Shown here piece after piece: positions 8,448-55,551 of a stretch of DNA of 64,000 nt (its first letter is position 1; each line of letters opens with the position of its first letter). Source of the stretch: an uncultured Clostridia bacterium (GTDB lineage: Bacteria; Bacillota; Clostridia; TANB77; CAG-508); assembly GCA_934180065.1 (NCBI GenBank), contig CAKPRA010000007.1, positions 1,963 through 65,962 on the forward strand, given 5' to 3'. The notes below the pieces were generated by a model. That model did not search any database and had not been told where the DNA came from. It was given only the letters and a program-made list of their open reading frames with translations. A program made the translations under genes and the position numbers.

Positions 8448-8477
8448 AAATAAATTTTATTTGAAAGGAAGATAAAA

Positions 8478-18638: not shown

Positions 18639-18667
18639 TTTACATAAATTAACATTAGTGCTATAAT
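18639..18667 (+). promoter_or_regulatory. Sigma-A promoter TTTACA-17-TATAAT (paralogous to 35311-35339)
   Basis: TTTACA 18639-18644, TATAAT 18662-18667. Confidence 0.75.
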
Positions 18668-18673
18668 ATTATC

Positions 18674-18691
18674 AAGGTGCTGAAAGCACTT
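18674..18691 (+). promoter_or_regulatory. Conserved 5'-leader hairpin (AAGGTGC-TGAAA-GCACTT)
   Basis: It sits in the same position after the -10 as the hairpin AGGTGC-AAATT-GCACT at 35346-35363. The preceding ATCAAGGTGC is identical in both. Confidence 0.6.
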
Positions 18692-18728
18692 AATACGGAA
18701 CCCAATCAATCAATAAGGAGGAATCATT

Positions 18729-20264
18729 ATGAAAAAGCAGCGGTCAAGAAACGTAGCTATAATAGCTACACTGGTAACACTGGCAACTCTGGCAATACTT
18801 GCAATGTCATCAATAACTGTATTTGCAAGTACAAACGAAGACGTCATTAAGGGAGATCTTAATGCAGACCACAATGTTAATTGCTTTGATATGATATTGA
18901 TGAAACGTGCCATTTCAGGAACATATGAAACTGATTTGGAAAAAGCAGATATCAACAACGATGGCAAAGTTACTGTTGCTGATGCTGCTATAATGAAACG
19001 TTTCTTTATTGGAGCAATACCAAGCTTGGAGATTACAACGGGAACCACCACAACGACTACAACAACGGCAAATAATACTACAAAGTCGGACACATCAACC
19101 ACAACTACAAACCAGACCACAATAACTAAAGCCACAACCGAGAAAACTACTACAACGGAATATGAATGGATCCCTCCAAAGAGAGAAGATCTTGTTCATA
19201 ATGGTGAAACTATGGATGAGGAAACATATCAGCTGTTAATTAATACTGCCAAAATGTTTGGAGTAAAGCGTTATGAATTCCAGTGGAGTTCACATCCGAT
19301 TGAATATGGATATTTTGATCCTGGTCCATTATTCTGTATGACAGAAGGTTACGCCTACGGATATGGTGTACAGGTACTTTCATCTGATAAGATTTATGAC
19401 TTTGCACCGGAGAAAAGCAAACTTGAAAAATCTACATTTAAGTATGGATATGAATTTCTTTTGTATAGACCCATACTTGAAGATGATAATGACCCAAAAG
19501 TTCTTTCTTCATTTGAACTTACAACAGATGCATTTAAAAGCAATGATGGTCTTTTAATTTCTGGAATGCGCAAAATAATTGAAAGTCCAAATTGCGAGCC
19601 GGGAGATGAAGGCTATGAGCGAGAATTGTTTACTGCAAATGCATACAATCCTGTAGATTTTATAGGTTGGTATTTAGTACCTGTTGATGAAAATGGAGAA
19701 AAAGTTGAGGAAATACCAGAAGAATTTGATACATCAATAAAGCCTGCAAAGAGTATCAAATATTGGTTTACAAATGAGCAGTTACGTAGTTCGGGTTTTA
19801 TTATTCCACTTGCAATATTCTATGATTACATAAATACAGCAAATTTATACAATATGTCCAACTTTAAATTAGTATATAACACTGATAAGGAAAACCCAAT
19901 CCCATATTCATTTGAAAAAGGAAATACGGTAACAACAAATGGAATTATATTAGGTGCTCCACAAATTTTGCCATATTACGATTTACCAAAAGTAGTTGAT
20001 TTATACAAATTCTGCTTGGAATATGCACAGGGTAGTGAAAAAGCTGCAACACAGTTGGAAGAAATAATTTTAGAGGGCAAATTTACGCCATTCTATTATG
20101 TAACCTTAAAAGACAATGATAGAAACAATCAGATTCAGAATGTAGTTTATATACCGGATTTGTTTGTAGATACCCATAAGTGGTATGTCATGATACCACT
20201 TGATGAGGAAGGAAATGAGGATTTAAGACCATATCCTCTTCGCACTGATATAGAGATTGATTGA
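18729..20264 (+). CDS. Secreted dockerin-type protein (511 aa): signal peptide, complete type-I-like dockerin (two Ca-binding segments), Thr-rich linker, ~370-aa domain of unknown function
   Basis: GDLNADHNVNCFDMILMKRAISG...ADINNDGKVTVADAAIMKRFFIG (nt 18852-19028). TTGTTTTTTTTANNTT...TTTE linker (19029-19160). Strong RBS TAAGGAGGAATCA. G+C is clearly higher than the neighbours. Confidence 0.8.
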   Translation: MKKQRSRNVAIIATLVTLATLAILAMSSITVFASTNEDVIKGDLNADHNVNCFDMILMKRAISGTYETDLEKADINNDGKVTVADAAIMKRFFIGAIPSLEITTGTTTTTTTTANNTTKSDTSTTTTNQTTITKATTEKTTTTEYEWIPPKREDLVHNGETMDEETYQLLINTAKMFGVKRYEFQWSSHPIEYGYFDPGPLFCMTEGYAYGYGVQVLSSDKIYDFAPEKSKLEKSTFKYGYEFLLYRPILEDDNDPKVLSSFELTTDAFKSNDGLLISGMRKIIESPNCEPGDEGYERELFTANAYNPVDFIGWYLVPVDENGEKVEEIPEEFDTSIKPAKSIKYWFTNEQLRSSGFIIPLAIFYDYINTANLYNMSNFKLVYNTDKENPIPYSFEKGNTVTTNGIILGAPQILPYYDLPKVVDLYKFCLEYAQGSEKAATQLEEIILEGKFTPFYYVTLKDNDRNNQIQNVVYIPDLFVDTHKWYVMIPLDEEGNEDLRPYPLRTDIEID

Positions 20265-20269
20265 GAAAA

Positions 20270-20303
20270 AGGCTCATCCCCTATTATGGGGATGAGTTTT
20301 TTT
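20270..20303 (+). terminator. Rho-independent terminator
   Basis: CTCATCCCC-TATTAT-GGGGATGAG followed by TTTTTTT. Confidence 0.85.
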
Positions 20304-20342
20304 GGATATTAGTGAATATTGTATTTCCTTAAGCATATTTGT

Positions 20343-20371
20343 TTGTAATAAAAATTAGTCGAAAATATAAT
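20343..20371 (+). promoter_or_regulatory. Sigma-A promoter TTGTAA-17-TATAAT for the RCC1 giant gene
   Basis: TTGTAA 20343-20348, TATAAT 20366-20371. Confidence 0.65.
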
Positions 20372-20511
20372 AAAATTGTAATATATTTCATATGACTGAT
20401 TTCCCTATATAAAAATGGATATTTATATATAAAAGCAAAATTGTTAATTTTAATTTAATAAGTATAATAAAAAATAGCAAAATAAATAATAATTTTTTGG
20501 GGGTAAATCAC

Positions 20512-23500
20512 ATGAATATTAGTAAAGGAATCATTAAAAAAATATTTGCAATTGTATTGTTATTAGCAATAATAATTCAATATTTTCCAATAGCAGTTTT
20601 GGCTGATAATACTGAAAAGGATGATTTTAGTGATAAAATCAATTTTTCTGTTAAATGGAAAAGTGGAAAAGAAATAGAAACGGGTAATGCAGGACTAGAA
20701 TATATAATAGTATTCAATGGAGTTCAAACTGGTTTTCGTAATGTCAAAGTGTTTATGGAAACTAATAAAGTAGATAATATTATAGATAGTATATCTTGTG
20801 TAAAGTCTACAACAGGTACAGGATGGGCGCAAGTTAATTATGGTTCAAAGGAAACTGGTACGTCTATATCTGGAGATGCATTCGTAAAATTTGGAAATCC
20901 AACAGAGATAATGGATAGAAATGTAAAAATTAAACTTACAGGAGAATATACAGATCCAGAAACAAATGATGTTATTAATTTTGACATTAATAAAGAGCTA
21001 AAGGCAGTTATAACACCAGCAACAATAATGTCAGACTTTTCAGCATATTTAAATTGGCAAAAATATAATCGAAACGGAATGGTCCGTGATTTTACACCAT
21101 ACTTATTTAGTAATACCATAACAATTAAAAATGGATGGTATGACAAATCAGTATCAGCAGTATATCCAATATATATAAGTGCTCTTACATATACACAGAA
21201 ATTTGATTTAAAAATTACAATTAATCGTTATAAAAATGAAGATAATTCAAAAATTTCTCAAATATCTGATGGATATACTATAAACTGGGATGGTTTAGAT
21301 GATGTTTTAGGAGAGCCAACAAAAATCGATAATAGTGATGGTTCAATAAGTTATGTATTTAGTAAAGGACAAGACTCAGACGTATTTGATAAAGCAAATA
21401 CATTTACTGTTGAATCTAAATTAATAGACGAAAAAGAGAATCGTAGTGGATTTAATGTAGTTATTAAATATAATACACCTAGAACTAATCCTATAGAAGA
21501 AAGTACTCCTGAAAGTAATTTTAATTGTTCATTTTCAGCTGAAATGGAAGCAATAGGTTTTAATGTAAAAAAAGAATATGGAAAAGAAGAAGTTGTTACT
21601 AAAAAAACTGAGAAAAAATCATTATATAATACTAAAAGCAAAAGCTTAAATGGATATACTTCAGGACAACATTCATGGAAGAAATGGGAATATACATCTT
21701 TAAAAGCTGAAGGTGAATCAGAGATTACTGATACAGTAGTAGAAAATTTAAAAAAGAATAGAACTATAAAATTATATACTCAGTTAAGTAAGATTTCTGA
21801 AGGAGTTGGAGAGAATGATTATCAAGAAGGTTTTATAAAAATTAAAGCTCCAACATTATATTATCAAAGTGATAATGGCGAAATGAAATCAATAACTTTA
21901 TCAGGAACTCAAATGAGAGCAGATAAAATAACTGCTACTTCATTTGGAACTAATTATTATGTAAATGGTGATAAAAAGGTAGAATTTAGTGGAACATATA
22001 CTCCTGATGAAGGGGAAAATGAAAATGTGTTTTCTATACAAATGAATGATTATTTAAATCGTAGTTTTTATTCATATGGAATTGAATATACTTTAGATAT
22101 AGATAAAGTTGGATTAACAGATACTGAAATTGATAATATTTCTGGAATTGAATTTGATATGGATACAAGTGGAGAATGGCTTTATGGTGGAAAGTCAGAG
22201 TACCTAGAAAGAAAAATTGCTAAAAAAGAGAATAAACTTTCTTATATGTCTTTTTATACACAACTTAAAAGTAGTGCAGATGATTTAAATATTAGTATAC
22301 CTACAACTGAAACTATAAATATGTTTAAACCAGAAACGGTGGGAGATACAGATAGTACACATAATTTTGTGGTAAATGAAAACCCTGTTTTTTATATAGA
22401 GCTACCTTCAATGTTTGAATATGAAAATTTTAAAATTAGAAGTTCAAAAAAAGAAACAATAAGTATAGATGAAGAAAATGTAGAAATCATAAAAAAAGAT
22501 GGTGTGAAATATTTAGTAATACCATGTAAAGGAACTTATAATAGTGATATTGATAATAAGATATTTATAACAATTAAATTCAATAGGAAACTAATTAATC
22601 CATCTAATGGTGATTATTCAATAAGTGCATATATGCTAACAGATAATGAAAATTATTATCAAAAAGGAGTTCCTAATGTATATGAATTTAGTAAAACAGA
22701 AAATGCACCTAGTAAAATTTTTAAAAATGAAATAAAATTCTCAATATTAGGTTATAGTGAATTAAAAGCAAATACTAAAATTGAAGTAAACAATAAAACA
22801 TATATACCAAATATGGATAATAGCTCTGGGCAAAAAAATAATCCGGTTATTAGTGATTTTTCTAAGGATAGTATTATAGTTAAATCAGAAATTTCAGCAG
22901 TTGGTGATGATTTAACTAATGTTGAAATATTAAGTAGGTTACCATTTTCAAATAATACATTTATAGAAAATAAAGATACTCAATTAATAGAAACAGATTA
23001 TAATAAAAACGGAGAATTAAGTGATTTTATAGATAAACATAATGGAAAACTAAAAGGAATAACAAAAAATACAGCTATACCACAATTGACATTATCAAAT
23101 GTTAAAATATTAGGAGTATATGGAAAAAATCTAGAAGATCAAAATAAAGAGTATGTTATTGATAAAAAGAATTATCAAATTTATTATACAACAGAAGAAA
23201 AGGCAGATTTTGATTCAACAAGTTTTGTTAAATATGAAGAAGGTGTTTCAGATTTATCAAAGGCTAAAAATATAAAAATTGTTTTTAAAAATGAAAACAA
23301 TGTAAATTATAATATAAAATCAAATCATTCAGTTTATTTAAAATATGAAATTACGATGCCAGACGAACAAGGAATGGCTGGTTCCGTATGCTCTGTAAGA
23401 TATGATAGAGCTAAAACATCAAATACTGAAACTTTACATTCAAAAGCTGGGTATATTATAAATGGAGAAACAACAGGTACAATAAAAGTACAAAAGAAAT

Positions 23501-26500
23501 TTGAAAATTATAAAGTAGGTGTAGCTCCTACGGGATTAAGCTTGGAAGGAATAGAATTTAAATTACAATATTATGATGAGTCAACTTCAGAAAAAAAATT
23601 CCTTCAAGATGTAAATGGAAATGACATTGTTGCAAAAACAAACTCAAGTGGTATTGCAATATTTGAAAATATACCACAAAATGAATATTATTTATATGAA
23701 ACTACAGAATTTGATAATTATAGTGGAATTGGAAAAATGAACCTTATCACAGTAAATCCAGCAGAAACTATAGAATATACGGCAACAAATATATTAAAAA
23801 AGGGTTCAATAACTGTAACAAAAAATTGGGAAAATTCAAAAGAACAACCAGGAAGCGCAAGTTTCCAATTAATAAGGGTTAATGGTGCAGGCGAAACTTA
23901 TACTTTTATTCCAAAAACTGTAACAACAAATGAAAATGGAGAAGCTGTATTTTATGATATACCATATGGTAATTATATAGTAAAAGAGGTTAGTTGTGCT
24001 GATGGATGGACACCAAGTGGTGGTGAAAGTAAAACAGTTTCTTTGAATTCTAGTACAGCAACAGTTAATTTCGTTAATGTAAGATCACGAGCAGTATTAC
24101 AGATTGTTAAAACAGTTCCAACTGGAGAAACTGTTGATGGGCTAACATTCCATATAGTTGGACGTGGAAAGGTATCATATACTGACAAAAATGGAAATAT
24201 AGTAACTTCAGATAGTGAATACACAATCAAAATTGGAGAGAATTATCCTAATAATGTACGTGTTACTAAATCTGAAGATGGCTCTACAGCAACTATAACA
24301 ATTGCTGGTGTATATTTAGGATATTATTCAATTGAGGAAATTGATATTCCTACAATTGAAGGAACTAATATAAAGAAGTATTCACCTGTAAGTGCAAATG
24401 TATTATTAGAAAAAAATGATTTGGCAAATCCAGTAATTGTTAATTTATCAAATAGATATAAAATGGGATACTTAAAAATAAACAAAACAGCTAAACTAAA
24501 AGAGGGCGGTAAATATACGGATATAGGTGATTTGACAGGTTTCCAAGTTCGTATAACTGGTAAATCATATTATGGACATGATGTAGATGATTTAATAACA
24601 TTAGATGAAAATGGATATGGAATCGGAAAATATGAAATTGGTGAATATACAATAACAGAGGTTCCAAAGGAAGGATATACTGCATATTATGGTTTAGATA
24701 ATACGGCAAGTACAACACCACCTAAGGTTACAATAGAGCAAAATAAAACTATAACTCAAAATCTTTATAATGAACATACAGGTGTTGGTTATGTAAGAGT
24801 AGAAAAAAGCTTAGAAGGTGTGACAGATCCACAAATTGTAATAAAAGCCGGAATTAAGTTTAAAATTTCCGGACAAAATGTTGCTGGTGGAAGAGTAAAT
24901 GAAACTATATTAATTGATAAAATAGATGAACAAAACAAAGTAGCTTATGGAATTTCAGGTCCAATTTCTTCAGGTGGAGAATATGAAATTAGTGAGGAAG
25001 AAAGTACTATTCCAGAGTTTTATGAAGGAATAGATACTGAAAAAATAGAAATAAGTACTTCTAATACAGTGGAAAGTCCTTTAATTAAAAAAATGGTTAA
25101 TACTAGAACTAAAGGAAACTTGGAAATTGTTACAACAACAGATCCAGAAGGTGGAAATTTAAAAGGAATTTCATATAAAGTTACAGAGGTTGAACTAGGC
25201 GAAAATGGTACATATAAAGTTATAGGAACTACTGTTAATGTAGAAGGAAGTAATAATGATATTGATGCAAGTTTTGCAAAATTAGAAAATATAAATGCAG
25301 GATATTATTTAGTTGAGCAAGATAAAATTCCAAGTGGATGGATTAAAGATGTAAAACAAATAGTTGAAGTACCAAGTTATAATACAGGATATGCAAATTT
25401 TGAAATAACAGAAAGAAAGAAATTAAATGCTAATAAAGTAACTATTAACAAAGTTTTATTAAATGAAAATGGAGAGCAAGCATCTGAAGAAGATATTAAA
25501 AAGGCTAATCTTGATAAAGATGAAATATTTGAAGTTAAACTAACAAATACAAAAACACAAGAAATTTATTATGTATTTACTTCAGTGAATAATCCAGGAG
25601 TAATTCAAGGTTTAGATGCTGGAACATATTCTATAGAAGAAGTATTTAAACCAAAGTATTTACCAGAGGGATATTATAAGAACATAGAAGTAAAAGGACA
25701 AATTCCAGAGCAAGGTACTCAAAATGTTGAAGAAAAAATTGAACAAAATGAAGGAAAATACTTATTTACTATAACAGAAAATGGAAATATAACTGAAGAT
25801 GTTAATTTAATTATAAAAAATAAAATTGATACTGCATATGGATTTGGTGGACAAACAAACAGAAGTAACTTAAGTAAAATAGATACTGTAGAAGAGCCTT
25901 CTAATTATGTAACAAAAGCTGTTATATGGGTTGTTGATGAAAATGGAGATGCTATTTCAGGAGTTAAATTTAATTTATTAACTGCACAAGGAAATATTGT
26001 TTCTTTAAATGGAAAAACAGAATTTGAAATTGCAAACAAAAAATTAATAATAAAAGGACTACCTGTAGGAACATATACATTAAAGTGTATAAGTGTGCCA
26101 GATGGATATGTAAAACCAGATAATGAGCAAATAGTAGTTTATAGTGATGCAACTCAAGTAGCAAGAGTTGAAGTACAAAAAAATATACCACGTGGAAGCT
26201 TGAGTTTATCAACAACATACAAAGATTTAGAAGGAAACTCAAAATTTGTATCACGCTCTAAATACAAAGTTGTAGATACTAAAACAGGTGAACTTGTAAA
26301 ATTTGTAAGAACCGCAACAGGTGATTATAAGAAATCTAATCTAGAAGCTGCTTCACCAGTAATTGTATTAAAATCTGGAGTTGTAAATGTTGATGGAATA
26401 GAAACTGGAGATTATGAAGTTGGTATAGTAGATGTTACAAAAGGATATGGAATACAAAAAACAGAAGTTGAAAAAGTGAATGTAGAAGAAAATGTTGATA

Positions 26501-31974: not shown

Positions 31975-31993
31975 CTTAATAAAATTAAATAAA

Positions 31994-32023: not shown

Positions 32024-32082
32024 GTAATAAAAAAATGTCTTAGGAGCATTAATAATTTAAAATGCTTCAGAAAGGAGAAAAA

Positions 32083-35077: not shown

Positions 35078-35123
35078 AATTTAGGAATAAAGCGAAAATC
35101 TAGTTAGCTTATATTTTGATTTA

Positions 35124-35224
35124 TTTTTATATAATGGCAAAGTTTTATATATGAGTAGAATTTTATCTATAAGTAATGTTAAAAACTATATACTATATTA
35201 AAATAGATATTTCCTATTATATAA
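35124..35224. repeat. Module A copy 2
   Basis: TTTTTATATAATGGCAAAG...ATATTTCCTATTATATAAG, about 85% identical to 17901-18007. Confidence 0.8.
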
Positions 35225-35310
35225 GAGCCAGTAGTAGTTATATCCGTAATTAAAGAAGTTAGTAATATATTTTAGAATTTGATGTTACAATAAAAAAAAC
35301 AAAAAAAGAC

Positions 35311-35339
35311 TTTACATAATTTACAAAAAGTGTTATAAT
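35311..35339 (+). promoter_or_regulatory. Sigma-A promoter TTTACA-17-TATAAT (paralogous to 18639-18667)
   Basis: TTTACA 35311-35316, TATAAT 35334-35339. Confidence 0.75.
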
Positions 35340-35345
35340 GTCATC

Positions 35346-35363
35346 AAGGTGCAAATTGCACTG
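35346..35363 (+). promoter_or_regulatory. Conserved 5'-leader hairpin (AGGTGC-AAATT-GCACT)
   Basis: Paralog of 18674-18691. Confidence 0.6.
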
Positions 35364-35412
35364 TGTACGAAAATCCAAATACATATCTTAACTTTTTAAG
35401 GAGGAATCAGTA

Positions 35413-36327: not shown

Positions 36328-36336
36328 CTAAAAAAT

Positions 36337-36363
36337 GGGGAGCTTTGCTCCCTGTTTTTTTTT
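36337..36363 (+). terminator. Rho-independent terminator
   Basis: GGGAGC-TTT-GCTCCC followed by TGTTTTTTTTT. Confidence 0.85.
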
Positions 36364-36400
36364 GATCGATTAAATATATAACAATATTATTAATATTAGA

Positions 36401-36444
36401 AATTTGTAAAAAAATGTAAAACAAATGTAAAACAAATGTAATAT
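36401..36444. repeat. 11-nt phased repeat AAATGTAAAAC (4 units, outer ones degenerate) upstream of the 6,328-aa gene
   Basis: AATTTGTAAAA / AAATGTAAAAC / AAATGTAAAAC / AAATGTAATAT. Confidence 0.75.
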
Positions 36445-36501
36445 AAGCAAGAAAAATGCATTTCCGTAGGTATAGTTATAAATATTAAAAGAATTAAATT
36501 T

Positions 36502-36529
36502 TTGACCATAAATGAAAATGCATTAAAAT
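36502..36529 (+). promoter_or_regulatory. Candidate sigma-A promoter TTGACC-16-TAAAAT
   Basis: TTGACC 36502-36507, TAAAAT 36524-36529. Confidence 0.35.
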
Positions 36530-36564
36530 AATAAATAGTAATTTAAAAAACGGAGGAGAAATCT

Positions 36565-48500: not shown

Positions 48501-51500
48501 GGTTGAGTATGACTTTAAATTGGAAAAACTTGATACTTCAAAGAAGCCATTATCTGGTACTCAAATTGAAGTTAATAGTAGTAAATCAGGTAAATATTAT
48601 ACAAATGGTAAATCAGAAATGAGCTTTAAAGAGCAAAATTTAAAACCAGGTGATATAATTACATATACTATCAGAGAAGTTCATACAGTAGCAAATAGTG
48701 CATATGTAAATAGATTTTATAATACTATTACTTATAAAGTTGAAGTAAAAGCTGATGGTACATTGGAACAAAAAGAAGCATATATTACAACTTCTGATGG
48801 AAATAAAAATTTAAGTGAAGTGAGATTCTTAGACTATGGTATATCAGGTACTAGTGGAAATCAAACTATTTACTTTAAATTGGAAAATCCAACTAAGATT
48901 AATGTTGAATTATTAAAAACACAAGCTGGAAAAGATGAATCTGCAATTTTAAATACAAACTTTACTATTAATAGTAGTTTGAGTGGTGACCATACTGAAA
49001 ATACAGATTCTAATGGATTAATAAACTTTACAGAAAGTTCTATTAAGCCAGGTGATTATACTTATAAAGTGTATGAAAATAAAGTTGCAAATCCAAACTA
49101 TGTCAACGTATTAGATGGCATGTATATGGAGGTTAATGTTTCAGTTAGTGCTGCTGGATTAATTACAATCAATAGCACAAAATATTATTATAAAGAAAAT
49201 AATGTAGAGATAACAAATGAAAGTCTATTAACAAAATTAAGAAAATATGCAACTGCAACAGTTGATGATTCTGCAAGTGTTAAAAAATTAAAATTTGTTG
49301 TTAAGGACCCTGTTACATTTGAATTTAAGGTATTTAAACATACAACTGGAAATGAAAAACTTGAAAATGTTAAATTTAAAATTACAAGTCCTTTATCTGG
49401 AGAGCAAACTGCAACAACTGATTCAAATGGATATATAACTGTTGATAGTGATAAATGGGTTGAACCAGGTGTTTATAAATATGAAATTACAGAGCTTGAA
49501 ACTATAGGAAAACAATATGATAATATTTTAGATGGATATAAGGTTGTAGTATATTTAAAAATTAGTAACACTGGATTAATTTCTCTTGTTAAAGATGCTA
49601 ATGGAACAGCATTTACTAAAAATGATAAATATAAATATTCTATTGAAAAGATAGATGGTTCTGATGTAAGCAGTGAAGCTTCTGATATTATTCATAAATA
49701 TATTACGGTTACTCCTACAGAAGTTAAAGATGCAAAAGATAAAGTAACTGTTTCTGTAGCTAATACAACAGGATACAATATGGATATTATTAAGAAAGAT
49801 TCTGCCGGAAATAAAGTTTCAGGATCTAAGTTTACAGTAATAAGAAACAAAACTGTTAAATTATTAGATAATGAAGATGTAACTTCTGATAAAGAAATTA
49901 CTGAGAGAGATTTATCACAAGGAAATTATACATTTGATATTACTGAAAATAGTGCTCCAGAAGGTGCATATATAAATATATTAGATGGAAAATTCATTAG
50001 AGTATATACATATTTAAGTGATAAAGGTGTATTGGATATTAGAAATTCTTCTGGTACAGTTTCAAATAATTATTTTGAGATATATGAAGGAGATATTACT
50101 AATACATCAAAAGCTAAATTATTAGATAAAAATGATGCAAATTATAAATATTTATATAATTTAATCAGTGTTAATGCACAAGATAAAGACAAAGACGGAA
50201 TCTATACTATAGATGTTTCTGTAATAAACCCTGTAAATATCAATGTTGAAGTATTGAAAAAACAATATGGAACAGGCGGTAAGGGAATTGCTAAGACAGA
50301 ATTTACAATTAGTAGAGATGAAAATAATAAACATGAAAACGTATTTACAAATAATAGTGGTATATATGATTTCACAGAAGAGCGAATAGCACCAGGGGAT
50401 TATACTTATACTGTAAAAGAGCTATCTCCTGCAAGTGGTAAGTATGTAAACATCTTGAAAGATAGATATATGGAAGTATATATTAATGTTAATGCTAAAG
50501 GTGAAATAACTGTTAAGGGATATGAATTATTTAGTAAAGAAGGAACCAAACTTTCTTCTGAGATTAAAAATGAGATTTCTAAATATATTGCAATTAGTGT
50601 TAATAAAAGCTCTGAAACTCAAAAATTAGTGATTACAATTTATAACCCTACAACAATGACTTTTGACTTGTATAAGAGCGATATTGATAATAAACCTTTG
50701 GCAAATGCTAAGTTTAAAATTTCAAGAACACTTGTAAAAGTATATGCCAATAATAAAACTACAAAAGATATTAATGAACTTGAAACTACAACTGATAAGT
50801 TAGGTAAAGCTTTATTGAATAATGATAAAATTCTTGATCCAGGTATTTATAAATATGAAATTACTGAGTTAAATGCTCCAGGAAATCAATATGTAAATAC
50901 ACTTGAAAATATTAAAGTTGTTATCTATGTAAAACTAGCTTTAAATGGTAATGTTTCAATTGTGGCAAACAATAGTGGTACAGAATTTAAATCTGACACT
51001 GTATATAAATATTATGTTTTGAATTCTGATAATTCTGTTGCAAGTAAAGAAGTTCAAGATTTAGTTCATAAATACTTTACTGTTACAACAGAGCAACAAA
51101 ATAATTCTATAGGTGGAATAAAATGTGATGTTATAAATCCTATAAGATATAAAGTCGATATTATTAAAAATGACGAAAGAGCAAAACCATTGAGTGGTAC
51201 TAAATTCTCAGTAGTTAGAGATGATGGTATTAAGGTCCTTGATAATGCTGAAATTACAACAGATGTTGAGATTGAAGAAAATTATATTGAACAAGGTGAC
51301 CATGTATACTATATTACAGAAAATAGTACTGTTCCGGGATATATTAATAAACTTAAAGGTATGTTTATAAAAGCATATATTAATGTAAGTGCACAAGGTG
51401 TGGTTACAGTTAATAAATACGAAATTTATAAAGGTACAGTTGAGGATATTAGTAAATCAGTATTACTTGATAAAAATAAAAACTTAGAATTGTACAATTT

Positions 51501-54500
51501 AATTGGTGTTGAAAGTGTTGTAAATGATAATGTTTATACATTAAATGTTAAAGTTACAAACCCAGATTTAACATATAATTTGTTAATTAATAAAAAGATT
51601 TTTGGAAATGAAGAAATTAATTTAGCAAATACTAAGTTTACAGTTATAAGAATAAATGAAAGTAATTCTGAGAAGAAAACTTATACAAATAAAGTTACTG
51701 ATAAAAACGGAAATATTTCAATATTGCAAGAAAGAATTCCTGCTGGAATATACAAATATTTGATAACAGAAACAAGAACTTCTGGAAATCAATTTGTAAA
51801 TATTTTCGCAAATAGTACATATGTTGTGGTTAGATTAAAAGTAAATGAGGATGGAACAATAAAAATTCTAGACGAAAATGGTAATGTTAGTGAAGATGCT
51901 TATGATGTGTATAGACAAAAAGCTAATACATCAGTCTTAGAAAAAATTGATTCTAAGGATACTGTTATTAATAAGTCTGTGGTAAGAGTTGGTATAACTA
52001 CAAATAATAACAATGTCCCTGAACTAGATATATTTGTTAAGAATCCTGAAAAATATAACTTTAATTTAGTTAAAATTGACAGTAGTACAAAAGAAAAATT
52101 AAATAATGTTAAATTTAGTTTAACAGTTTATGAAGGCGAAAATGTTATTAAATTAAAGAATGCAAATACATTTAAAGAAATAAATACTAATGAATTAGTA
52201 ACTAAAAATGTAAACGGAAAAGATGGTTATATAAGTATTAAAGATATATTAATCGAAAAATCTGGTAAATATACATTTGTATTACATGAAGAGTCAACTG
52301 ATGGATTGTTCGAGAAAATATATAAAACACACGGATCTGATATTAAGGTCACTGTGGAAATTGCAGTTCAAAATGGTGAGTACATTATTAAGAAACCTGT
52401 AATCACACAAGGTTCAAAATATGTGGATTCACTAGATGTAACATCAACAAAATCACAAACTGCAACTGTTGAAGTTATTAATACACCAATGACTGGATCT
52501 TATGAATTAGTTATCGATAAATTAGATAGCTATACTGAGAAAAACCTAAAAGGTGCTGAATTTGATATATCTGTAGAAAAAGATGGTAAACCTTATGAGC
52601 TATATAAAGCAAATGATGATTTAACAATAAATGAAGTAATTTTACCAAAATCAGTTAAAGTCAATGGTGAATTAACAATACCAAATATAAGAATTGATAG
52701 ACCTGAAACTTATACTATAATACTTAAGGAAACTAAAGCACCTACTGGTTATATGCTATTAGATGCTCCAATAAAGATTAAAGTTACAACAGGTAGAAGC
52801 GGTTCTTATGATGACGAAAAATTCATTGTTGAATCTATTGAATTAATTGATGATAATAATCATGGATTAGTTACAGCAGATAACGGTGATGAGTCAATTC
52901 ATATAACAGCTAAAAACGAATATTTCGATTTAGCATTAAGAAAATCTATCACATCTGTTGCTTACAGTGATAGAGAAGAAGCAAAGATTACTGAAGAGGA
53001 AACTAAAGACAGAGTTCCAATTGTTGAATCTAAGAATTTAATTGAAAATGATAAGGTTACAACAGCAGATTACAACCATGTTAAGAACCATGTTAGAGGT
53101 TATAATTCTCAAGAAGTAATATTTACATTAAGAGTTTATAATGAAGGCGAAATTGATGGATATGCTGAAGAAATTACAGATCACTTACCAGAAGGTTTAG
53201 AGTTTGTAAATGATAGCTTTAATGCAGAATATGGCTGGAAATTAGATTCATCAGATACTTCATTAAGAACTATTAAAACAACATATTTATCTAAGGATAG
53301 TAATCCAAATAATGATAAATATAATTCTAAAAATAACTTAATTAAGGCTATGGATAAAACAACTGGAAAGATTGACTTTAAAGAAATCCAAGTTAAATGT
53401 AAAATTTCTGAAGATGTTAAAGTAGGTACAATACTTACAAACATTGCAGAAATTAGTAAGAGCAAGGCAAATAATAGAACAGCTGAAACTGTTGATATTG
53501 ATTCTACAACAAATAATGTCAAGGTTCCAGAAACTTCAGAAGGAATGGAACAATATAATGAAGATAAATTGACAGATGATAGAAACAAATATGTTCCTGG
53601 ACAAGAAGATGATGATGACTTTGAAAAGATTATTGTTGATGAATTCGACTTAGCTTTAAGAAAATATATTACTGAGATTAATGATGAAAAAGTTATTGAA
53701 GATAATGGGGATTCAATAGACGAAGACAGTCCTGCTAGATATGCAAGAGCGCCTATAGTAAATGTTGATTCATTGAAGGATGGCACAAGCACGACTGCTA
53801 AATATGATCATCCAAAAGATCCTGTTGAGGTTTCTGTTGGAGATATAGTAACATATACATTAAGAGTCTATAATGAGGGTACAGTATCTGGATATGCATC
53901 ATTAATTAAAGATGATATACCTGAAGGATTAGAATTTGTAACATATGATAAAGGTGATGGAAGTACAAATGATATCTATAGATGGAAAATGGTCAATGAA
54001 AATGATGAAGAGGTAACAGATCCTAGTGAAGCTAAATATGTAGTATCAGATTATCTATCAAAAGATAATGAGAAAACAGAATTTGGCAATTTGATTAAAG
54101 CATTTGATCATGACACAATGAGTACACTAGATTCTAAGTATGTAAAAATTGCATTTAGAGTTGTATGTAAACAAGATTATCCAAAAATTATAACAAATGA
54201 AGCTCAAATTTCTGATGATTCAGATGAATCAGGAAAATCTGTAATAGACAGAGATTCTACTCCAAATGAGTGGCTTGATGAAGATGATGAAGATGTTGAG
54301 CACATTAAAGTAACATATATGGACTTGGCATTAAGAAAGTTCATTACAGGTGTAAATAGTGAAGAGGTAACTAATAGAGTTCCTGTCGTTGATGCTACAG
54401 CATTAAAGGACGAAACTGGAACAACAGCAGATTATAAACATACAAAAGAGCCAGTTTTAGTTCATACAAATGATACTGTAATCTATACTTTGAGAGTTTA

Positions 54501-55551
54501 TAATGAAGGAAGCAAAGATGGTTATGCTACACAAATTAAAGATGATATACCACAAGGTTTAGAATTCTTACCTAATAATGAAATAAATAAACAATATGGT
54601 TGGGCTCTTGTTGATGAAAATGACAAGGTTGTAACAAATATTGAAAATGCTAAATATATAGTTACAAATTATCTATCAAAAGATAATGAAACAGAAGAAA
54701 GAAATAATTTATTAAAAGCATTTGATGGTACAACAATGGAAACACCTGATTATAGAGATGTTAAAATAGCATTTAAAGTAATCGAACCAACAACATCAGA
54801 TAGAATTATAATAAACTATGCTCAAATAAGTGAACAAACTGATAAGAAGGGTGTTCATAGAGAGGATAGAGATTCTACTCCAAATAAATGGCTTGGAGAA
54901 GATGATGAGGATATCGAAAAAATTAGAGTTCAATATTTTGACTTAGCCCTAAGAAAATGGGTAACAAAAGCTATCGTTGTTCAAAATGGAAAAGAAAATG
55001 TAACAGAAACAGGACACCATGCTGAAGATGATCCTGAAGCTATAGTAAAAGTTGATCTAAAGAAGAGCAAGATAAATTCTGTTGTAGTTAAATTTGAATA
55101 TAAGATTCGTATCACTAATGAAGGCGAGATTGAGGGATATGCTAAAGAAATAAAAGATCACATTCCTGAAGGATTGAGATTTGAAGCATCTGATAATCCT
55201 ACATGGACACAAATAAGTGACAATATCATTGTAACTGATGAACTTAAAGATACTTTACTAAAACCTGGAGAAAGTGCAGAAGTAACTGTTGTATTGACAT
55301 GGATTAATTCTGGAACTAACTTAGGTGTAAAAGTAAATATTGCTGAAATTAGTGAAGATTACAATGAATATGGTACTGATGATATTGATTCAACACCAGA
55401 TAACTTTGTTGATGGTGAAGATGATATAGATGATGCTCCAGTAATGTTAACTGTAAAAACTGGACAAGAAAATCTAGCTTATACGATGTTAGCATTAGCT
55501 GTAATAACTGTCTTAGGATTAGGAATTCGCGGTATCAAAAAAATGAAATAA
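36565..55551 (+). CDS. Giant (6,328 aa) cell-surface adhesin: N-terminal signal/anchor, thioester domain, dozens of Cna-B-like stalk units, pilin-like central module, four C-terminal DUF11 + acidic modules, VKTG sorting-like signal
   Basis: Single uninterrupted 18,987-nt ORF. RBS GGAGGA. TED motifs NGYCMHQG (Cys92, nt 36838-36840) and SAQQYAVWHFTN (Gln170, nt 37072-37074). Repeated units (Y/F).F.(L/I).K.D....L.GA.F.V....G..Y.Y.I.E..AP.GY. C-terminus DDAPVMLTVKTG-QENLAYTMLALAVITVLGLGI-RGIKKMK. Confidence 0.9.
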   Translation: MKKRKNILLFIISIIILVGIILFGFLNNNLEIINLKKEKENLALSKISGRYVRMVEEMGDGESVDGEIRIYSEGTPPDVIADRTYDFTNGYCMHQGDTFKGYVPKGDNVKYESQYSGYEKYGGSIRWLFDNVVLFPSPADIDEYKSRLAYILNYDTIKKMENNEIFSAQQYAVWHFTNEAKTDELIPEGNIGELANKLIEKAEKNSNYSGNGASTTITDKSDKKLEKIGNDFWIGPYNVNNNGKIYKLTIDNTTINGKIVKIELYTGKNSGSKIDNDSYRTQSGDIYIKIPGSLNNNFSGILSQKNNFSASIDLDDYATSTRYWECESKGYQPAVTIQREHKPINISATGTYNAPDGEYHMNIVKKAIWDTNTDSESDTADKYKNAIGDAKFEITQSGKNFAQTNNGKTKDKDELVSISGNIGRIVFNNNGSYGDGRISITEDNWSNEDYYSIKEIAAPEGYSKNNRELYFGVTKIYDSESKKYVINQIICYKDSNYKDVITSVSPEKDVSKWIKIGFNGELLSESENNYAIALEFRKNAITITYKDYPESSYNLNIAKKSTDSTIDSANEYKDCLEGAIFEIKQNRNDGSGIHNGFSINPTAENKNNESAFDHDSDGNRIVKTWKGTLAKLAFDGHGSDSDGNVKVDGDNYNKEDIYTVKEIKSPNGYTNEGRELKFGILKKLSDDKKSYVIDKVKFYGLNVSSNTVIKEVTSNGNRQWLKIDKNGNVVDENSDNYVISLDFNQTAINVIYKDPEIKGNYDFKLAKLDSADISKITSLDEYEKLKYVSGVEYGVSQLRASVVSPVIGDNRKITTQESPVSIQKDGTIIGKDVINNIIHNGSSDYDNYLIYETNSKDAGYVKKDVSFNIGVCVTIENNNTENAKYVVNKIKCYKNKSNTGDPDCEINQGEKYVVLNTGKFVKLEDILKLDKKQREDKLFTATAIIGLDNSSTISYVGINQQITGNYKLRLKKIYKTDDGSEIGVKGISFKVNKKINGENGTGTNFNLGPTGNNGYTNIYTSNITKDDVNKTDVYEISEIEDSNENLIQLKNPIKIFVTKKCQKSQGNNDLEEYVIDKASFEYGDEVTEGETSETVATLEDGTEVSVKMTVSSSGVLITVPNKLNGHYNLNIGKKSTENNEYKNNNDSDYIAGAKFNVEQYLNVSQNISDINNINPNKSDSIVSQSGKSVPVTFNKNANIDIDNTALVDRYKITEMEAPKGFSLNKSFKDTGTKDGIYLTVTKTMQDGVYKIKNLSLTRIQNGNSYVIKDGITDDIITVDDYNCKIVWNKDTNTIDFIIGDPVANGEYDFKITKTDVTGEIIDSEITTFDVDVYSQKNESNGKVSFSNPVSLKHTDGTNVELKNIKATTGVTTNLNNIKIDTNDIGKTYYFVITETQAPDAYSMIDYKVVVPVKYVEQDGKYYISKDESFAVTADNTKQSLEKMSSNVNEVVKVEPDEELGNTINVKVPNKIKKGTYTFKFSKVNPDRKIIGSTKTRFNLNVYAKMTENSNKVSFSDLRKLYDVNNKEIITTDLKCTMGVCGTVSNIKIEEESIGKTYYFVLEENEAPEGFNKIEYKVVVPITYKQNEDGYFIEHGELFAVTADGTKKAIKDIDEIERAEDYSNANKPSIVFVKVPNTPKEGSYSLNIVKTNLNGNTNSKLNATFDVNVYKTKNINGNKVEFSNEYKPLKDTADNNIKTTDLVTENENTINISGIKIQKADAGKEYYFIINEKVAPTGYNGIDYKIVVPISFIEKTVDGKTVYTAKVGEAFGLKNSSGDTTVSGDMINLDDRVSIPKTTDGIISVTVKNNQKNGGFKLNLVKYIKGSTATLPGAKFKVTIKDNGTGKNIYSKSDLTTDGEGKIPEITGLDIRKENVSYTVTVEETYTPDGYLGLSGPIKFTVKSRFNTNKDGYELVAANPTVANAKKVEVKSGEIYIEAENIPEPSIHKGVKTVENQDSGYYDNVEHDWVINTTVPTGINQFTKYYVTDKIDERLVFSRNSVTVKVIGGNKLTAGKDYKANYDSNTRVLTVSFINDDFVAGKSLPENSTIEIRFKTTFAKDENGNIKALGQAVPNQAELTYSNDSEEHKKYSETPEVHTGGIKLYKFEDENGNGQFDNGELSLAGARFKIALTEQDALNKNFIKIKDKNGNNTANDIVGESNSEGIVEFKGLEFGGDASSNVQNRTTDKTTHALVYNYDETKVSSDFWIVETSAPEGYIIDETPIRVTITKDSYNTEIAYMPKKANISIKGEYSVKLRKVNNQNNNIQNAEFKILSSISKATRSSVKTDANGIIDVSNGKVNIIANDKSEDENSSTVGKADSYEIKELSASSYLILKNSIKIIVNKELNEAGDKYRVSSVELSETGRKNSTTLIVSDTSKTATLKGVLLADNKKTVDVKLSIDGSDNILVNVPNDDLEGEYKISLLKKNSNTGEILKGIPFNINGTARATDENGTLSITQDREVDGSVKITRSNVGTPDQYVIKEETNEKTKYVSIIESPITVKVNKGENKNKNQYIVKSLEITATSTSGEKTTTITINESTNTGSGTFLAKCTDGTDVKCTVRAGSSGITIELDNPSKAGSYNFDINKVVLNDNDEEQGLEGVSFNVNLNGYEYPLSTNANGYTENITKDITSDNVDNNDEFVISELSTTQTNIVQLKNNLKLIVTKGVNSSNNGYEVKTMELAEVDANNPQNVIRTTGVINIDDCLNDTEKRGTLYLENVLLKDGRSVNIRLTAKGKTGFQIGIKNRTMTGNYVVKIRKVNSATGESIEGITFFTLQDKYEDSYEATTGSDGIAELINKKITNNEEEYYTILEKELPDNLKDKLLQITDYGLYLNIKTKKNDDNSGYLVDSVEMSSIKMQDCGDEELSNRQKEIMDKATYDVNDNVITITIYNEPLIDYNFRIYKVNNKNEELTEAKFTIKEDGVTILENQKLSEINGLISRAKQKINTVHTYDFYETEAPLGYDNIFEKTYLRITIKIDDKGKVTADYKVAPNREVGGTISDMLHTNAIIKEYKEASDNNEILHDNLDNSFTLHIPNPVATASIKFELNKHTLGTTDSIDGVGFDIRRLYIENEQSYNYTDITNMFDNDQNGIVGLKSITTSSQISNINIDNIKDINVGDTYYYELTENSGKFLAKYKKVIVRIHVNKDKTIVSNIIAVYGIKDGDNTNSWFTEINSDYASISQNNTNTILSLANTAGYAVIVNKKQFVSVVPKDSNGNILWTGMQGLSGAIFTIKEVENDGTEKIVNNSSNEPINNKVCTGSFAWSRTDATTSKRYHYTIRENSSPDGYINIFDGVTIHVYITIKSDGTVDDSDTATYYELEFDSGISEEDKASKTEYLKDKIGINLQNNTINLNILNKKDTINLAVKKISDKKDSSGKSIPLNNIKFSIRDTFAQDVRDIITNVDGYAEDTKQISIPQDSIFSYYIEETEVPSGITMLKNTRIIVSVDATNLTSASQLTSDRLTVSLSKTGEGGLSDVSELPGLKVGIEGNTVVLTVPNETETYLFNMYKVDENNNIIKSETGKVGAKFKVDRLISVDDNGSESYFTLLNNVLKNGSLSESNIIDADKVYKYRISEISSKTGYINVLQGYDLFVYVKADSQGKNIKDVPETYYILSKKDGENQLYSEDEIRSYIDLSVADNVVNLYIKNPYAYKFEINKKNLAGTTDVDKAVITGDRIANVSEDLTNANKTLLKQIVDASEKNDSTGDSEKYIAQTIKLDKKTSIISGNIEIKENVTQTWRITENSVELPYVNILKDKYLIVQTVYSKNNGLKLVSHQETINNENKSVNYYVSDKDGNNVTAELYEYLNVETVQVNGIWTLSVTVKDPVMYEVDLTKVEYNPNGKNESDYKQMKGAELSLTNSNNGESAEITKNGEAKTRALSVETSLGDLSKRTFEIRELSTIVNHKNILENVVVYVTTSLTEDGTLNYSVILKDNTGKTITGTEETNILEYIKFFEGTNADGYKVLHVYVENPVEYDFKLEKLDTSKKPLSGTQIEVNSSKSGKYYTNGKSEMSFKEQNLKPGDIITYTIREVHTVANSAYVNRFYNTITYKVEVKADGTLEQKEAYITTSDGNKNLSEVRFLDYGISGTSGNQTIYFKLENPTKINVELLKTQAGKDESAILNTNFTINSSLSGDHTENTDSNGLINFTESSIKPGDYTYKVYENKVANPNYVNVLDGMYMEVNVSVSAAGLITINSTKYYYKENNVEITNESLLTKLRKYATATVDDSASVKKLKFVVKDPVTFEFKVFKHTTGNEKLENVKFKITSPLSGEQTATTDSNGYITVDSDKWVEPGVYKYEITELETIGKQYDNILDGYKVVVYLKISNTGLISLVKDANGTAFTKNDKYKYSIEKIDGSDVSSEASDIIHKYITVTPTEVKDAKDKVTVSVANTTGYNMDIIKKDSAGNKVSGSKFTVIRNKTVKLLDNEDVTSDKEITERDLSQGNYTFDITENSAPEGAYINILDGKFIRVYTYLSDKGVLDIRNSSGTVSNNYFEIYEGDITNTSKAKLLDKNDANYKYLYNLISVNAQDKDKDGIYTIDVSVINPVNINVEVLKKQYGTGGKGIAKTEFTISRDENNKHENVFTNNSGIYDFTEERIAPGDYTYTVKELSPASGKYVNILKDRYMEVYINVNAKGEITVKGYELFSKEGTKLSSEIKNEISKYIAISVNKSSETQKLVITIYNPTTMTFDLYKSDIDNKPLANAKFKISRTLVKVYANNKTTKDINELETTTDKLGKALLNNDKILDPGIYKYEITELNAPGNQYVNTLENIKVVIYVKLALNGNVSIVANNSGTEFKSDTVYKYYVLNSDNSVASKEVQDLVHKYFTVTTEQQNNSIGGIKCDVINPIRYKVDIIKNDERAKPLSGTKFSVVRDDGIKVLDNAEITTDVEIEENYIEQGDHVYYITENSTVPGYINKLKGMFIKAYINVSAQGVVTVNKYEIYKGTVEDISKSVLLDKNKNLELYNLIGVESVVNDNVYTLNVKVTNPDLTYNLLINKKIFGNEEINLANTKFTVIRINESNSEKKTYTNKVTDKNGNISILQERIPAGIYKYLITETRTSGNQFVNIFANSTYVVVRLKVNEDGTIKILDENGNVSEDAYDVYRQKANTSVLEKIDSKDTVINKSVVRVGITTNNNNVPELDIFVKNPEKYNFNLVKIDSSTKEKLNNVKFSLTVYEGENVIKLKNANTFKEINTNELVTKNVNGKDGYISIKDILIEKSGKYTFVLHEESTDGLFEKIYKTHGSDIKVTVEIAVQNGEYIIKKPVITQGSKYVDSLDVTSTKSQTATVEVINTPMTGSYELVIDKLDSYTEKNLKGAEFDISVEKDGKPYELYKANDDLTINEVILPKSVKVNGELTIPNIRIDRPETYTIILKETKAPTGYMLLDAPIKIKVTTGRSGSYDDEKFIVESIELIDDNNHGLVTADNGDESIHITAKNEYFDLALRKSITSVAYSDREEAKITEEETKDRVPIVESKNLIENDKVTTADYNHVKNHVRGYNSQEVIFTLRVYNEGEIDGYAEEITDHLPEGLEFVNDSFNAEYGWKLDSSDTSLRTIKTTYLSKDSNPNNDKYNSKNNLIKAMDKTTGKIDFKEIQVKCKISEDVKVGTILTNIAEISKSKANNRTAETVDIDSTTNNVKVPETSEGMEQYNEDKLTDDRNKYVPGQEDDDDFEKIIVDEFDLALRKYITEINDEKVIEDNGDSIDEDSPARYARAPIVNVDSLKDGTSTTAKYDHPKDPVEVSVGDIVTYTLRVYNEGTVSGYASLIKDDIPEGLEFVTYDKGDGSTNDIYRWKMVNENDEEVTDPSEAKYVVSDYLSKDNEKTEFGNLIKAFDHDTMSTLDSKYVKIAFRVVCKQDYPKIITNEAQISDDSDESGKSVIDRDSTPNEWLDEDDEDVEHIKVTYMDLALRKFITGVNSEEVTNRVPVVDATALKDETGTTADYKHTKEPVLVHTNDTVIYTLRVYNEGSKDGYATQIKDDIPQGLEFLPNNEINKQYGWALVDENDKVVTNIENAKYIVTNYLSKDNETEERNNLLKAFDGTTMETPDYRDVKIAFKVIEPTTSDRIIINYAQISEQTDKKGVHREDRDSTPNKWLGEDDEDIEKIRVQYFDLALRKWVTKAIVVQNGKENVTETGHHAEDDPEAIVKVDLKKSKINSVVVKFEYKIRITNEGEIEGYAKEIKDHIPEGLRFEASDNPTWTQISDNIIVTDELKDTLLKPGESAEVTVVLTWINSGTNLGVKVNIAEISEDYNEYGTDDIDSTPDNFVDGEDDIDDAPVMLTVKTGQENLAYTMLALAVITVLGLGIRGIKKMK
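36790..37110 (+). other. Core of putative thioester domain (Cys...Gln pair)
   Basis: (Y/W)C(M/L) and Q.(A/V)(V/I)W.(F/Y)TN motifs are conserved between this protein and the 964-aa paralog. They match the published TQxA(I/V)W signature of Gram-positive TED adhesins. Confidence 0.55.
40483..42000 (+). repeat. Three tandem ~168-aa units (starts 40483, 40990, 41491)
   Basis: YDFKITKTDVTGEII.../YTFKFSKVNPDRKII.../YSLNIVKTNLNGNTN..., each ending ...KVPN..K.G. They share GKTYYFV(I/L)(T/E)E..AP..(Y/F)..I(D/E)YK(V/I)VVP(V/I). Confidence 0.8.
48898..51570 (+). repeat. Higher-order tandem duplication: two ~1.34-kb super-units (48898-50238, 50239-51570), each made of three stalk units
   Basis: INVELLKTQAGKDES...PGDYTYKVYENK... 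is collinear with INVEVLKKQYGTGGK...PGDYTYTVKELS... over ~445 aa. DNA segments such as 49455-49560 vs 50833-50940 are visibly similar. Confidence 0.75.
52921..55440 (+). repeat. Four tandem DUF11-like modules, each followed by an acidic DRDSTPN.WL.EDDED segment
   Basis: Units begin (F/M)DLALRK(S/Y/F/W) at about 52924, 53644, 54318 and 54938. Each contains Y(T/K)(L/I)R(V/I)(Y/T)NEG..(D/S/E)GYA..I.D.(L/I)P(E/Q)GL(E/R)F. Confidence 0.8.

Follow-up and report, generated by a model that had tools for sequence, protein, structure and literature searches.

A duplicated two-gene module in a gut Clostridia genome places genes of a new dockerin-protein family upstream of giant adhesin genes

The 64,000-nucleotide stretch of contig CAKPRA010000007.1 from an uncultured Clostridia bacterium (hereafter the window) contains a duplicated and conserved two-gene module, in which a gene of a new dockerin-protein family is followed by a giant adhesin gene. 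The two modules, or cassettes, comprise small1 with giant1 and small2 with giant2. Functional coupling between small protein and giant is likely. A more specific form of this coupling, in which the dockerin engages a cohesin encoded elsewhere and a unit of alpha/beta type in the small protein provides the link to the giant or to its ligand, is suggested by the sequence comparisons described here and is proposed tentatively, with somewhat less than an even chance of being correct. A dockerin-cohesin link to the giants themselves is unsupported. The initial annotation, a reading of the DNA letters that proposed the small proteins as dedicated partners of the giants, placed the four open reading frames (ORFs) correctly, as follows.

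18729–20264, + strand: small1, 511 aa; signal peptide aa 1–34, dockerin aa 41–92, Thr-rich linker aa ~101–145, unit 1 aa 146–335, unit 2 aa 336–511.
20512–31974, + strand: giant1, 3,820 aa from the ATG, with an upstream TTG at 20497; signal peptide, head aa ~32–1000, SpaA-type stalk aa ~1000–2000, RCC1-like beta-propellers aa ~2000–3820.
35413–36327, + strand: small2, 304 aa; signal peptide aa 1–30, F-hand 1 aa 61–81, inserted unit aa ~105–225, F-hand 2 aa 230–251, tail aa 252–304.
36565–55551, + strand: giant2, 6,328 aa; N-terminal thioester-type domain, many SpaA-type stalk domains, four DUF11/CLIPPER repeats, C-terminal VKTG, transmembrane (TM) segment and basic tail.

Both small proteins score above the gathering cut-off of the Pfam Dockerin_1 profile (PF00404, type I; 22.9 bits), small1 at 45.8 bits and small2 at 27.4 bits. 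The dockerin-type segments noted initially are thus recognized by the hidden Markov model (HMM) in both proteins, but the Ca-binding loops of small2 are not contiguous. In small1 the loops (aa 43–54 and 74–85) belong to tandem F-hand repeats within one contiguous match (aa 41–92), the layout expected of a dockerin, in which two F-hands of ~22 residues (Ca loop D-x-N/D-x-D-G-x-x-x-x-x-D plus helix) are joined by a short linker, and the best solved match of the small1-family profile in the PDB is the group-I dockerin 5m2s_B of Ruminococcus flavefaciens (1.8e-18). The small2 score is derived from two separated half-matches together with sub-threshold EF-hand matches, and its loops (aa 61–72 and 232–243) are ~170 residues apart, with ~150 aa between the repeats. 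Nevertheless, both F-hands and their separation are conserved in all four known members of the small2 family, and F-hand 1 best matches the dockerin region of Amy12 from the Ruminococcus bromii amylosome. Solved dockerins of both Ruminococcus and Clostridium are among the matches of the Ca-binding segments. It is plausible to regard the small2 layout as a dockerin variant, its F-hands working either singly or as a dockerin split around an insert. In R. flavefaciens the ScaE cohesin is bound by dockerins with a single repeat (group 2; PMC12270676), and in giant proteins of Omnitrophota the dockerin helices are split by an inserted domain (bioRxiv 10.1101/2023.11.21.568195), which in that case is CBM35-like, whereas the insert in small2 is a novel alpha/beta unit.

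The 366-aa C-terminal region of small1 is an internal duplication of this ~170–190-aa alpha/beta unit (hhalign 97.7%, E 1.6e-12), and small2 carries one copy placed between its F-hands (aa 131–191 against small1 aa 220–281; hhalign probability 88%, E 2.9e-6). Because small1 and small2 share promoter, 5' leader, ribosome-binding site (RBS), signal peptide, Ca-binding F-hands and the ~170-aa unit, they are paralogues. The AlphaFold2 (AF2) model of small1 has a predicted local distance difference test score (pLDDT) of ~80–90 over the C-terminal region and below 50 over the dockerin and linker. No relative of the unit was found in Pfam, NCBIfam, PDB sequences or by Foldseek: the C-terminal region of small1 matched nothing in the family-profile search of the PDB, and the best Foldseek match to the model in PDB and BFVD had E 0.84, none falling below 0.8. 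A full HMMER pass over 1.84 billion representatives recovered 37 clusters having the unit, with members carrying one or two units after Thr-rich linkers and, N-terminal to these, a dockerin of Ruminococcus type or a stretch containing one F-hand. A metagenome scan using the small2 alignment, in which the signal peptide and F-hand make poor patterns, returned unrelated dockerin-like matches only. The small proteins are a rare, previously undescribed family of Sec-secreted proteins, confined to one clade of gut and rumen Clostridia with low G+C. Neither dockerin protein carries a passenger with a recognizable enzyme or carbohydrate-binding module (CBM) domain.

The F-hands might instead be structural Ca sites that bind no cohesin, in small2 above all, with the small proteins acting through the unit alone as a binder of glycan or host ligand or as an unrecognized enzyme. 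The separated, partly sub-threshold matches of small2 would be consistent with such a role, as would the family members P0066, P0071 and L029, which have a single F-hand or none recognizable, and the lack of a cohesin nearby. However, small1 and most of its relatives possess a complete two-repeat dockerin close to functional R. flavefaciens dockerins, single-repeat dockerins are known to be functional (PMC12270676), and both small2 F-hands are conserved across the small2 family, so a purely structural role appears improbable.

The arrangement of the two genes is retained in related genomes. Homologues of the small genes and their neighbours at related loci are listed below; p964, treated further on, is an anchored surface protein encoded between the two cassettes.

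L019: small1 homologue, 66% identity; downstream, an RCC1 giant.
L020 and L027: small1 homologue, 42% identity; downstream, an RCC1 giant.
L028: small1 homologue, 38% identity; downstream, an RCC1 giant.
L024, L026 and L030: small1 homologue, ~31% identity; downstream, an RCC1 giant.
L029, an Oscillospiraceae metagenome-assembled genome (MAG) of 48% G+C: small1 homologue without a Pfam dockerin, 34% identity; downstream, GT2, decarboxylase and spermidine synthase genes.
L036: small1 homologue, 32% identity; downstream, a Wzy_C gene.
L021: small2 homologue, 51–54% identity; downstream, a giant2 homologue, and upstream, a p964 homologue.

The pair of small1 and RCC1 giant is thus present in four lineages in addition to the species of the window, five in all, at small1 identities of 31–66%. 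In the four lineages the giant follows the small1 homologue after 250–370 bp on the same strand, and the upstream neighbours differ completely among the loci, being a tRNA and a MucBP gene, housekeeping genes, or a 7,480-aa giant. Adjacency of small2 and giant2 is kept in L021, the one other lineage available. Given the pair in five lineages and the absence of a giant beside the L029 and L036 homologues, the pairing is conserved within the low-GC clade and is not obligatory for the family. The expectation that small genes would always adjoin giants accordingly holds for five small1 lineages and one further small2 lineage and fails for L029 and L036, which in part supply the contrary case that the initial annotation had itself named. 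In both of these giant-less lineages the downstream gene is glycan-related (GT2 at L029 11089–11856; a Wzy_C O-antigen polymerase/ligase-like gene at L036 1764–3176), which may be fortuitous or may hint at a role of the unit in handling surface glycans.

Conserved adjacency alone might arise between genes whose products never meet. The small proteins could be ordinary dockerin-plus-unknown components of a cellulosome- or amylosome-like surface complex encoded elsewhere, with no protein-protein partnership, and adjacency could reflect a surface-protein island inherited by the clade or read-through from the strong small-gene promoter that aids expression of the giant. Adjacency, strand and spacing nevertheless persist at 31–42% protein identity despite replaced flanks, which is unusual for unrelated neighbours in Firmicutes, and two paralogous small genes each stand 5' of a different giant. 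Such independence is considered rather unlikely, although it gains from the transcriptional organization and from other observations assembled below.

The regulatory and repeat elements of the two cassettes are the following.

17901–18006, + strand: module-A repeat, copy 1; ~106 nt with 26-nt inverted terminal arms, species-specific, resembling a miniature inverted-repeat transposable element (MITE) or repetitive extragenic palindrome (REP).
18639–18667, + strand: small1 promoter, TTTACA-17-TATAAT with extended −10 TG; kept in six loci and in L037.
18674–18689, + strand: small1 leader hairpin or palindrome, AAGGTGC-N5-GCAC, at the 5' end of the transcript.
20273–20303, + strand: intrinsic terminator 3' of small1; 9-bp GC-rich stem and T run, hairpin position kept in relatives.
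20441–20468, + strand: promoter-like site of giant1 itself, TTGTTA-16-TATAAT; kept in five of seven aligned lineages.
35123–35228, + strand: module-A repeat, copy 2.
35311–35339, + strand: small2 promoter, TTTACA-17-TATAAT with TG.
35346–35361, + strand: small2 leader hairpin.
36338–36362, + strand: intrinsic terminator 3' of small2; strong hairpin followed by a T run.

The promoters, the conserved leader and the strong terminator after each small gene, all noted initially, were found in both cassettes. Both promoters read TTTACA-17-TGnTATAAT and each matches 11 of 12 positions. The leader motif occurs exactly twice in the window, at the two small genes, against 0.17 occurrences expected; it is found once per locus in 23 of 30 loci, just 5' of the small gene wherever that gene was located. 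Promoter, leader stem or palindrome and RBS (AAGGAGGAAT) can be aligned over six loci of both small-gene families and recur in a seventh lineage. The RBS is perfect and the leader stem-loop short, and the small genes are probably highly expressed, as judged from their sequence. The folding energy of the leader hairpin gives no signal beyond that of shuffled sequences, and in the most distant lineage the motif is degenerate, so the element could equally be a palindromic operator or an RNA stem. A promoter-like site belongs to each giant as well, that of giant1 being conserved across lineages together with the small1 terminator; with separate promoters and an intervening terminator, co-transcription of small gene and giant is not required.

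Module A had been counted as part of the cassette. Its two copies were recovered (85% identity over 106 nt, 90 matches), and its 23-nt core occurs exactly twice against 0.01 expected, but it is present in same-species assemblies only and absent from diverged relatives, which makes it a local repeat outside the conserved cassette. It lies ~630 bp upstream of the promoter in cassette 1, with a tRNA-Arg gene and other repeats between, and ~85 bp upstream in cassette 2. A 66-nt repeat (18002–18067 and 57861–57926, 85% identical) is found directly 3' of module A and of rplI. Upstream of the tRNA-Arg gene and small1, a perfect 25-nt inverted repeat surrounds a 112-nt GC-rich segment (18162–18323), of which a second copy (~75% identical) lies between AT-rich inverted repeats at 10040–10150, upstream of the GH5 gene; the GC-rich segment could be a small RNA or a MITE. 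The 25-nt inverted repeat (18162/18299) was considered as an invertible switch and rejected, its orientation being identical in all four assemblies that cover the site. A shared regulator site 'TTTCCCTA...', hinted at by the intergenic alignment and the module-A arms, is not enriched in the window and was dropped. Neither the leader nor module A nor the GC-rich element is represented in Rfam.

The two giants differ in architecture. The conserved head of giant1 (~1,000 aa) has no relative in Pfam or the PDB. Scores of 275 bits for WD40_RLD (cut-off 150) and 94.8 bits for RCC1, with PDB matches to HERC1, HERC2 and UVR8 down to 7e-21, identify ~1,800 aa of RCC1-like propellers that reach the very C-terminus, where an RCC1-like blade is the last element. 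As had been stated, giant1 carries a signal peptide but is without an anchor: the C-terminus lacks a hydrophobic segment or sorting motif, and no other anchor (SLH, CWB or lipobox) and no Pfam anchor domain was found, unlike in the proteins p476, p491, p964 and giant2, which carry an anchor. Giant2 contains the thioester motif residues C92 and Q169/170 (in 'AQQYAVW'), its N-terminal piece scores 24.3 bits for the thioester domain (TED) against a cut-off of 22, and its SpaA and DUF11 domains score well over cut-off. Both giant2 and p964 have the composition of TED-containing sortase-anchored adhesins, with a variant sorting motif in place of LPXTG. Judged by its domains, giant2 is a self-sufficient anchored thioester/isopeptide adhesin, and the role of anchor adaptor suggested for the small proteins does not extend to it, since it carries its own VKTG, TM segment and basic tail. 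In some assemblies giant2 is called as 5,781, 4,755 or 1,730+1,548 aa, and the giants may frequently be inactivated, phase-varied or mis-assembled.

The initial annotation had looked to a cohesin in the giants as the receptor for the dockerins, and this was not borne out. The search covered ~74 kb of the genome (the window and 10 kb downstream), and HMM sensitivity for very divergent cohesins is finite. Pfam Cohesin (PF00963) was detected in no whole protein of any window ORF, and on overlapping pieces of the giants no match was obtained at E<=10 for giant1 or E<=1 for giant2. Searches with phmmer of giant1 and giant2 aa 1–4,500 against all PDB sequences returned RCC1 and pilin-type matches only, a 7-species giant1 profile likewise found no cohesin in the PDB, PF00963 is not on record for eight giants of related loci, and the 10 kb beyond the window encode housekeeping genes and no cohesin. 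Cryptic, highly diverged cohesin-like beta-sandwich modules in the giants could in principle bind the small-protein dockerins, so that the small proteins would be displayed on the giant or cap it. A divergent fold could hide in the ~1,000-aa head of giant1 or in long parts of giant2, for which Pfam and the PDB offer no relative, and the layout of promoters and terminators implies a high ratio of small-protein to giant expression. Yet these profile and PDB searches were all negative despite the many cohesin entries in the PDB, and giant1 would in any case stay unanchored; of the explanations considered here this is the least probable.

Divergence between the window and its relatives was quantified by the Nei-Gojobori method as synonymous divergence (dS) and the ratio of nonsynonymous to synonymous divergence (dN/dS), with small2, giant2 and p964 segments compared to L021 and small1 and giant1 segments compared to L019.

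small2: dS ~2.8 (saturated), dN/dS 0.12.
giant2 head: dS 0.61, dN/dS 0.42.
Rest of giant2: dS 0.40, dN/dS 0.35.
p964: dS 0.23, dN/dS 0.18.
small1: dS 1.16, dN/dS 0.18.
giant1 segments: dS 0.35–0.51, dN/dS 0.19–0.36.

DNA identity to L021 is 91–97% in p964, 64–68% in small2, 70–80% in the first ~3.5 kb of giant2 and 84–91% further on, forming a valley that is centred on small2 and reaches into the giant2 head. Divergence along the locus peaks at the small genes (33000–46500 against L021; 18500–30500 against L019), whose synonymous divergence is 2–10 times that of their neighbours; these genes are functional and constrained, under purifying selection. A dS so far above that of the neighbouring genes indicates that the locus is a mosaic in which the small genes behave as exchangeable cassettes. 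The values point to much older small-gene alleles, maintained by cassette exchange or by long-term balancing selection as in exposed surface molecules; alleles older than the giants would have been swapped independently of most of the giant. Such divergence under constraint fits abundant, outward-facing proteins. That the valley covers small2 and the giant2 head jointly argues against two genes without any partnership.

In the mechanism proposed here, the small protein would be a non-covalent accessory of the neighbouring giant. Its dockerin would bind not the giant but a cohesin from another part of the genome, for which a scaffoldin anchored in the cell wall, as known from Ruminococcus, is the most plausible carrier, and the alpha/beta unit would supply the link to the giant or to the giant's ligand. 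Anchorless giant1 would in this way be an adhesin held at the cell surface through small1, while small2 would decorate or modulate the distal thioester head of anchored giant2. A still more elaborate version is a two-component adhesin system in which an abundant, allelically hyper-diverse small protein of new fold serves as an exchangeable adaptor, its contiguous or split dockerin docked on a cell-bound cohesin and its unit gripping the anchorless RCC1 giant or capping the thioester head; this combination of features is unlikely to be correct.

Several observations weigh against the proposed coupling. Small gene and giant have separate promoters, with a strong terminator between them. No cohesin or other recognized binding module was found in the giants or elsewhere in the ~74 kb. 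The small1 homologues of L029 and L036 have no adjacent giant, and the giant sequence next to the small genes is younger than their alleles. As a complete adhesin with its own anchor, giant2 needs no partner or adaptor for anchoring. In three independent assemblies (L003, L004 and L005) giant1 has a nonsense mutation at codon 63 (G-to-T, window position 20698), and the small1 protein is identical in these three. The AF2 models are of limited help, as the dockerin region of small1 is of low confidence and the small2 model, built on a 4-sequence alignment, has a pLDDT of 36.5 and is unusable for the packing of the two dockerin halves. The separate transcription signals, the giants without a detected cohesin, the homologues without giants, the intact small1 beside a truncated giant1 and the different, older ancestry of the small genes would equally be expected of mere neighbours, as would a third giant in the window (906–8384) that has no upstream small gene.

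Known systems provide partial parallels. Non-enzymatic dockerin proteins ('Doc-UNK') of R. flavefaciens are tethered via scaffoldin cohesins to wall-anchored ScaE (PMC5301203, PMC2930009), and layouts with an N-terminal dockerin are listed among the Doc-UNK proteins of strain FD-1. The small proteins resemble these in being secreted and in combining a dockerin, a Thr-rich linker and a domain of unknown function, and the closest solved dockerin to small1 is from the same species. They differ in that no scaffoldin or cohesin was found within reach, the passenger is a new and rare family, and the genes are paired with giant adhesin genes and have a conserved promoter and leader of their own. Among the cohesin-dockerin assemblies of gut Clostridia outside the cellulosome are the R. 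bromii amylosome (PMC4611034, PMC12663171) and the Limousia mucinolysome (PMC12997984). The present system would likewise be dockerin-based, in gut Firmicutes and outside cellulose degradation, but those assemblies display enzymes on scaffoldins and are encoded in CAZyme (carbohydrate-active enzyme) loci, whereas the passengers here have no recognizable catalytic or CBM domain and the context is giant adhesins. The Clostridium perfringens proteins considered for comparison (PDB 2ozn/2jnk) gave a weak match only (E 0.64). Adams and colleagues reportedly described cohesin-dockerin complexes of toxins and glycosidases from that organism (PNAS, 2008); in these complexes both partners are recognizable by HMM and reside on large enzymes. 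The likeness lies in dockerins of a low-GC Clostridium on non-cellulolytic secreted proteins, and the difference in the cohesin, which was not found here. Thioester/isopeptide stalk adhesins with a sortase signal, the TIE proteins, use SpaA and DUF11/CLIPPER stalk domains (bioRxiv 10.1101/2025.04.25.650565). Giant2 and p964 resemble them in having an N-terminal Cys...Gln motif, a SpaA and CLIPPER stalk and a C-terminal sorting signal with TM segment; unlike them, giant2 is extremely long (6,328 aa), has the motif variant (L/V)T(V/I)KTG and has a dockerin-protein gene directly upstream. Gut Clostridia were already known to have both non-enzymatic proteins that bear dockerins and cohesin-dockerin systems outside cellulosomes (PMC4611034, PMC12997984). 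What is new is an orphan family, that of the unit, a paralogue with a split dockerin, a pairing with giant adhesin genes that is conserved and has its own promoter and leader, and allelic divergence of a cassette-like kind.

Between the two cassettes lies p964, which resembles a miniature giant2 and has the motif residues C51 and 'EQKVIW'.

32083–35077, + strand: p964, with the signal peptide in a separate frame (32083–32205) and the main ORF at 32183–35077; TED-like N-terminus, SpaA/pilin-like stalk, DUF11/CLIPPER, VKTG-TM anchor.

The signal peptide (MKIKKIVLITIITSLIISLCIGISSTVTNKLTIHEDKRLF*) is in a different frame just 5' of a T6 run (32197–32202). All metagenome copies are called as a 956-aa product without signal peptide, so the frameshift is real; a pseudogene, slippage-type phase variation and programmed frameshifting are the alternatives. 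The DUF11/CLIPPER proteins p476, p964 and giant2 (9780–9908, 34950–35077 and 55420–55551) end in (L/V)T(V/I)KTG, TM segment and basic tail, whereas a MucBP protein (17700–17839) has a canonical LPKTG, and these sequence endings suggest two sortase specificities.

The window has a G+C content of 26–34% and a steadily positive GC skew, and is rich in surface proteins: a 2,492-aa BspA-LRR protein, MucBP proteins, a membrane-bound GH5, a GT2 and the two giants. At 906–9908 the gene for the anchorless 2,492-aa BspA-LRR/SpaA protein, of which no exact copy is on record, precedes that for a 476-aa MucBP/DUF11 protein with anchor. This order parallels that of anchorless giant1 and anchored p964, and an alternative arrangement with a downstream anchor partner is possible. 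A 34-nt tandem repeat (10222–10418; 5.8 copies, 90% match) abuts the start codon (10417) of the membrane-bound GH5 cellulase gene. Between giant2 and rplI lies a PD-(D/E)XK (Rpn/transposase-like) gene (56419–57231), and the window ends in the housekeeping genes rplI, dnaB, tilS and ftsH, with the dcw cluster beyond them. Many human gut metagenome contigs, Hadza samples included, encode exact copies of both small proteins, and the nearest species-level genomes with relatives are uncultured 'Clostridia bacterium' and 'Oscillospiraceae bacterium' MAGs from roe-deer and sheep rumen, sheep rectum and Hadza stool.

Gut Firmicutes commonly carry giant adhesins, and both the surface retention of the anchorless ones and the variation of their specificity are poorly understood. 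The alpha/beta unit is a structurally orphan family, having a confident AF2 model and no fold relative, and the two small expressible proteins offer a way into otherwise hard-to-handle proteins of 4,000–6,000 aa. From their cassette-like allelic divergence, the small proteins are probably under pressure from host, phage or competitors in the gut populations of humans (Hadza, Nepal) and ruminants. If the proposed coupling is correct, a dockerin partner gene that is conserved and strongly expressed would mean that cohesin-dockerin assembly serves the display of adhesins as well as of enzymes, and in the two-component adhesin system swapping of the small cassette would re-tune attachment or antigenicity while leaving the giant unchanged.

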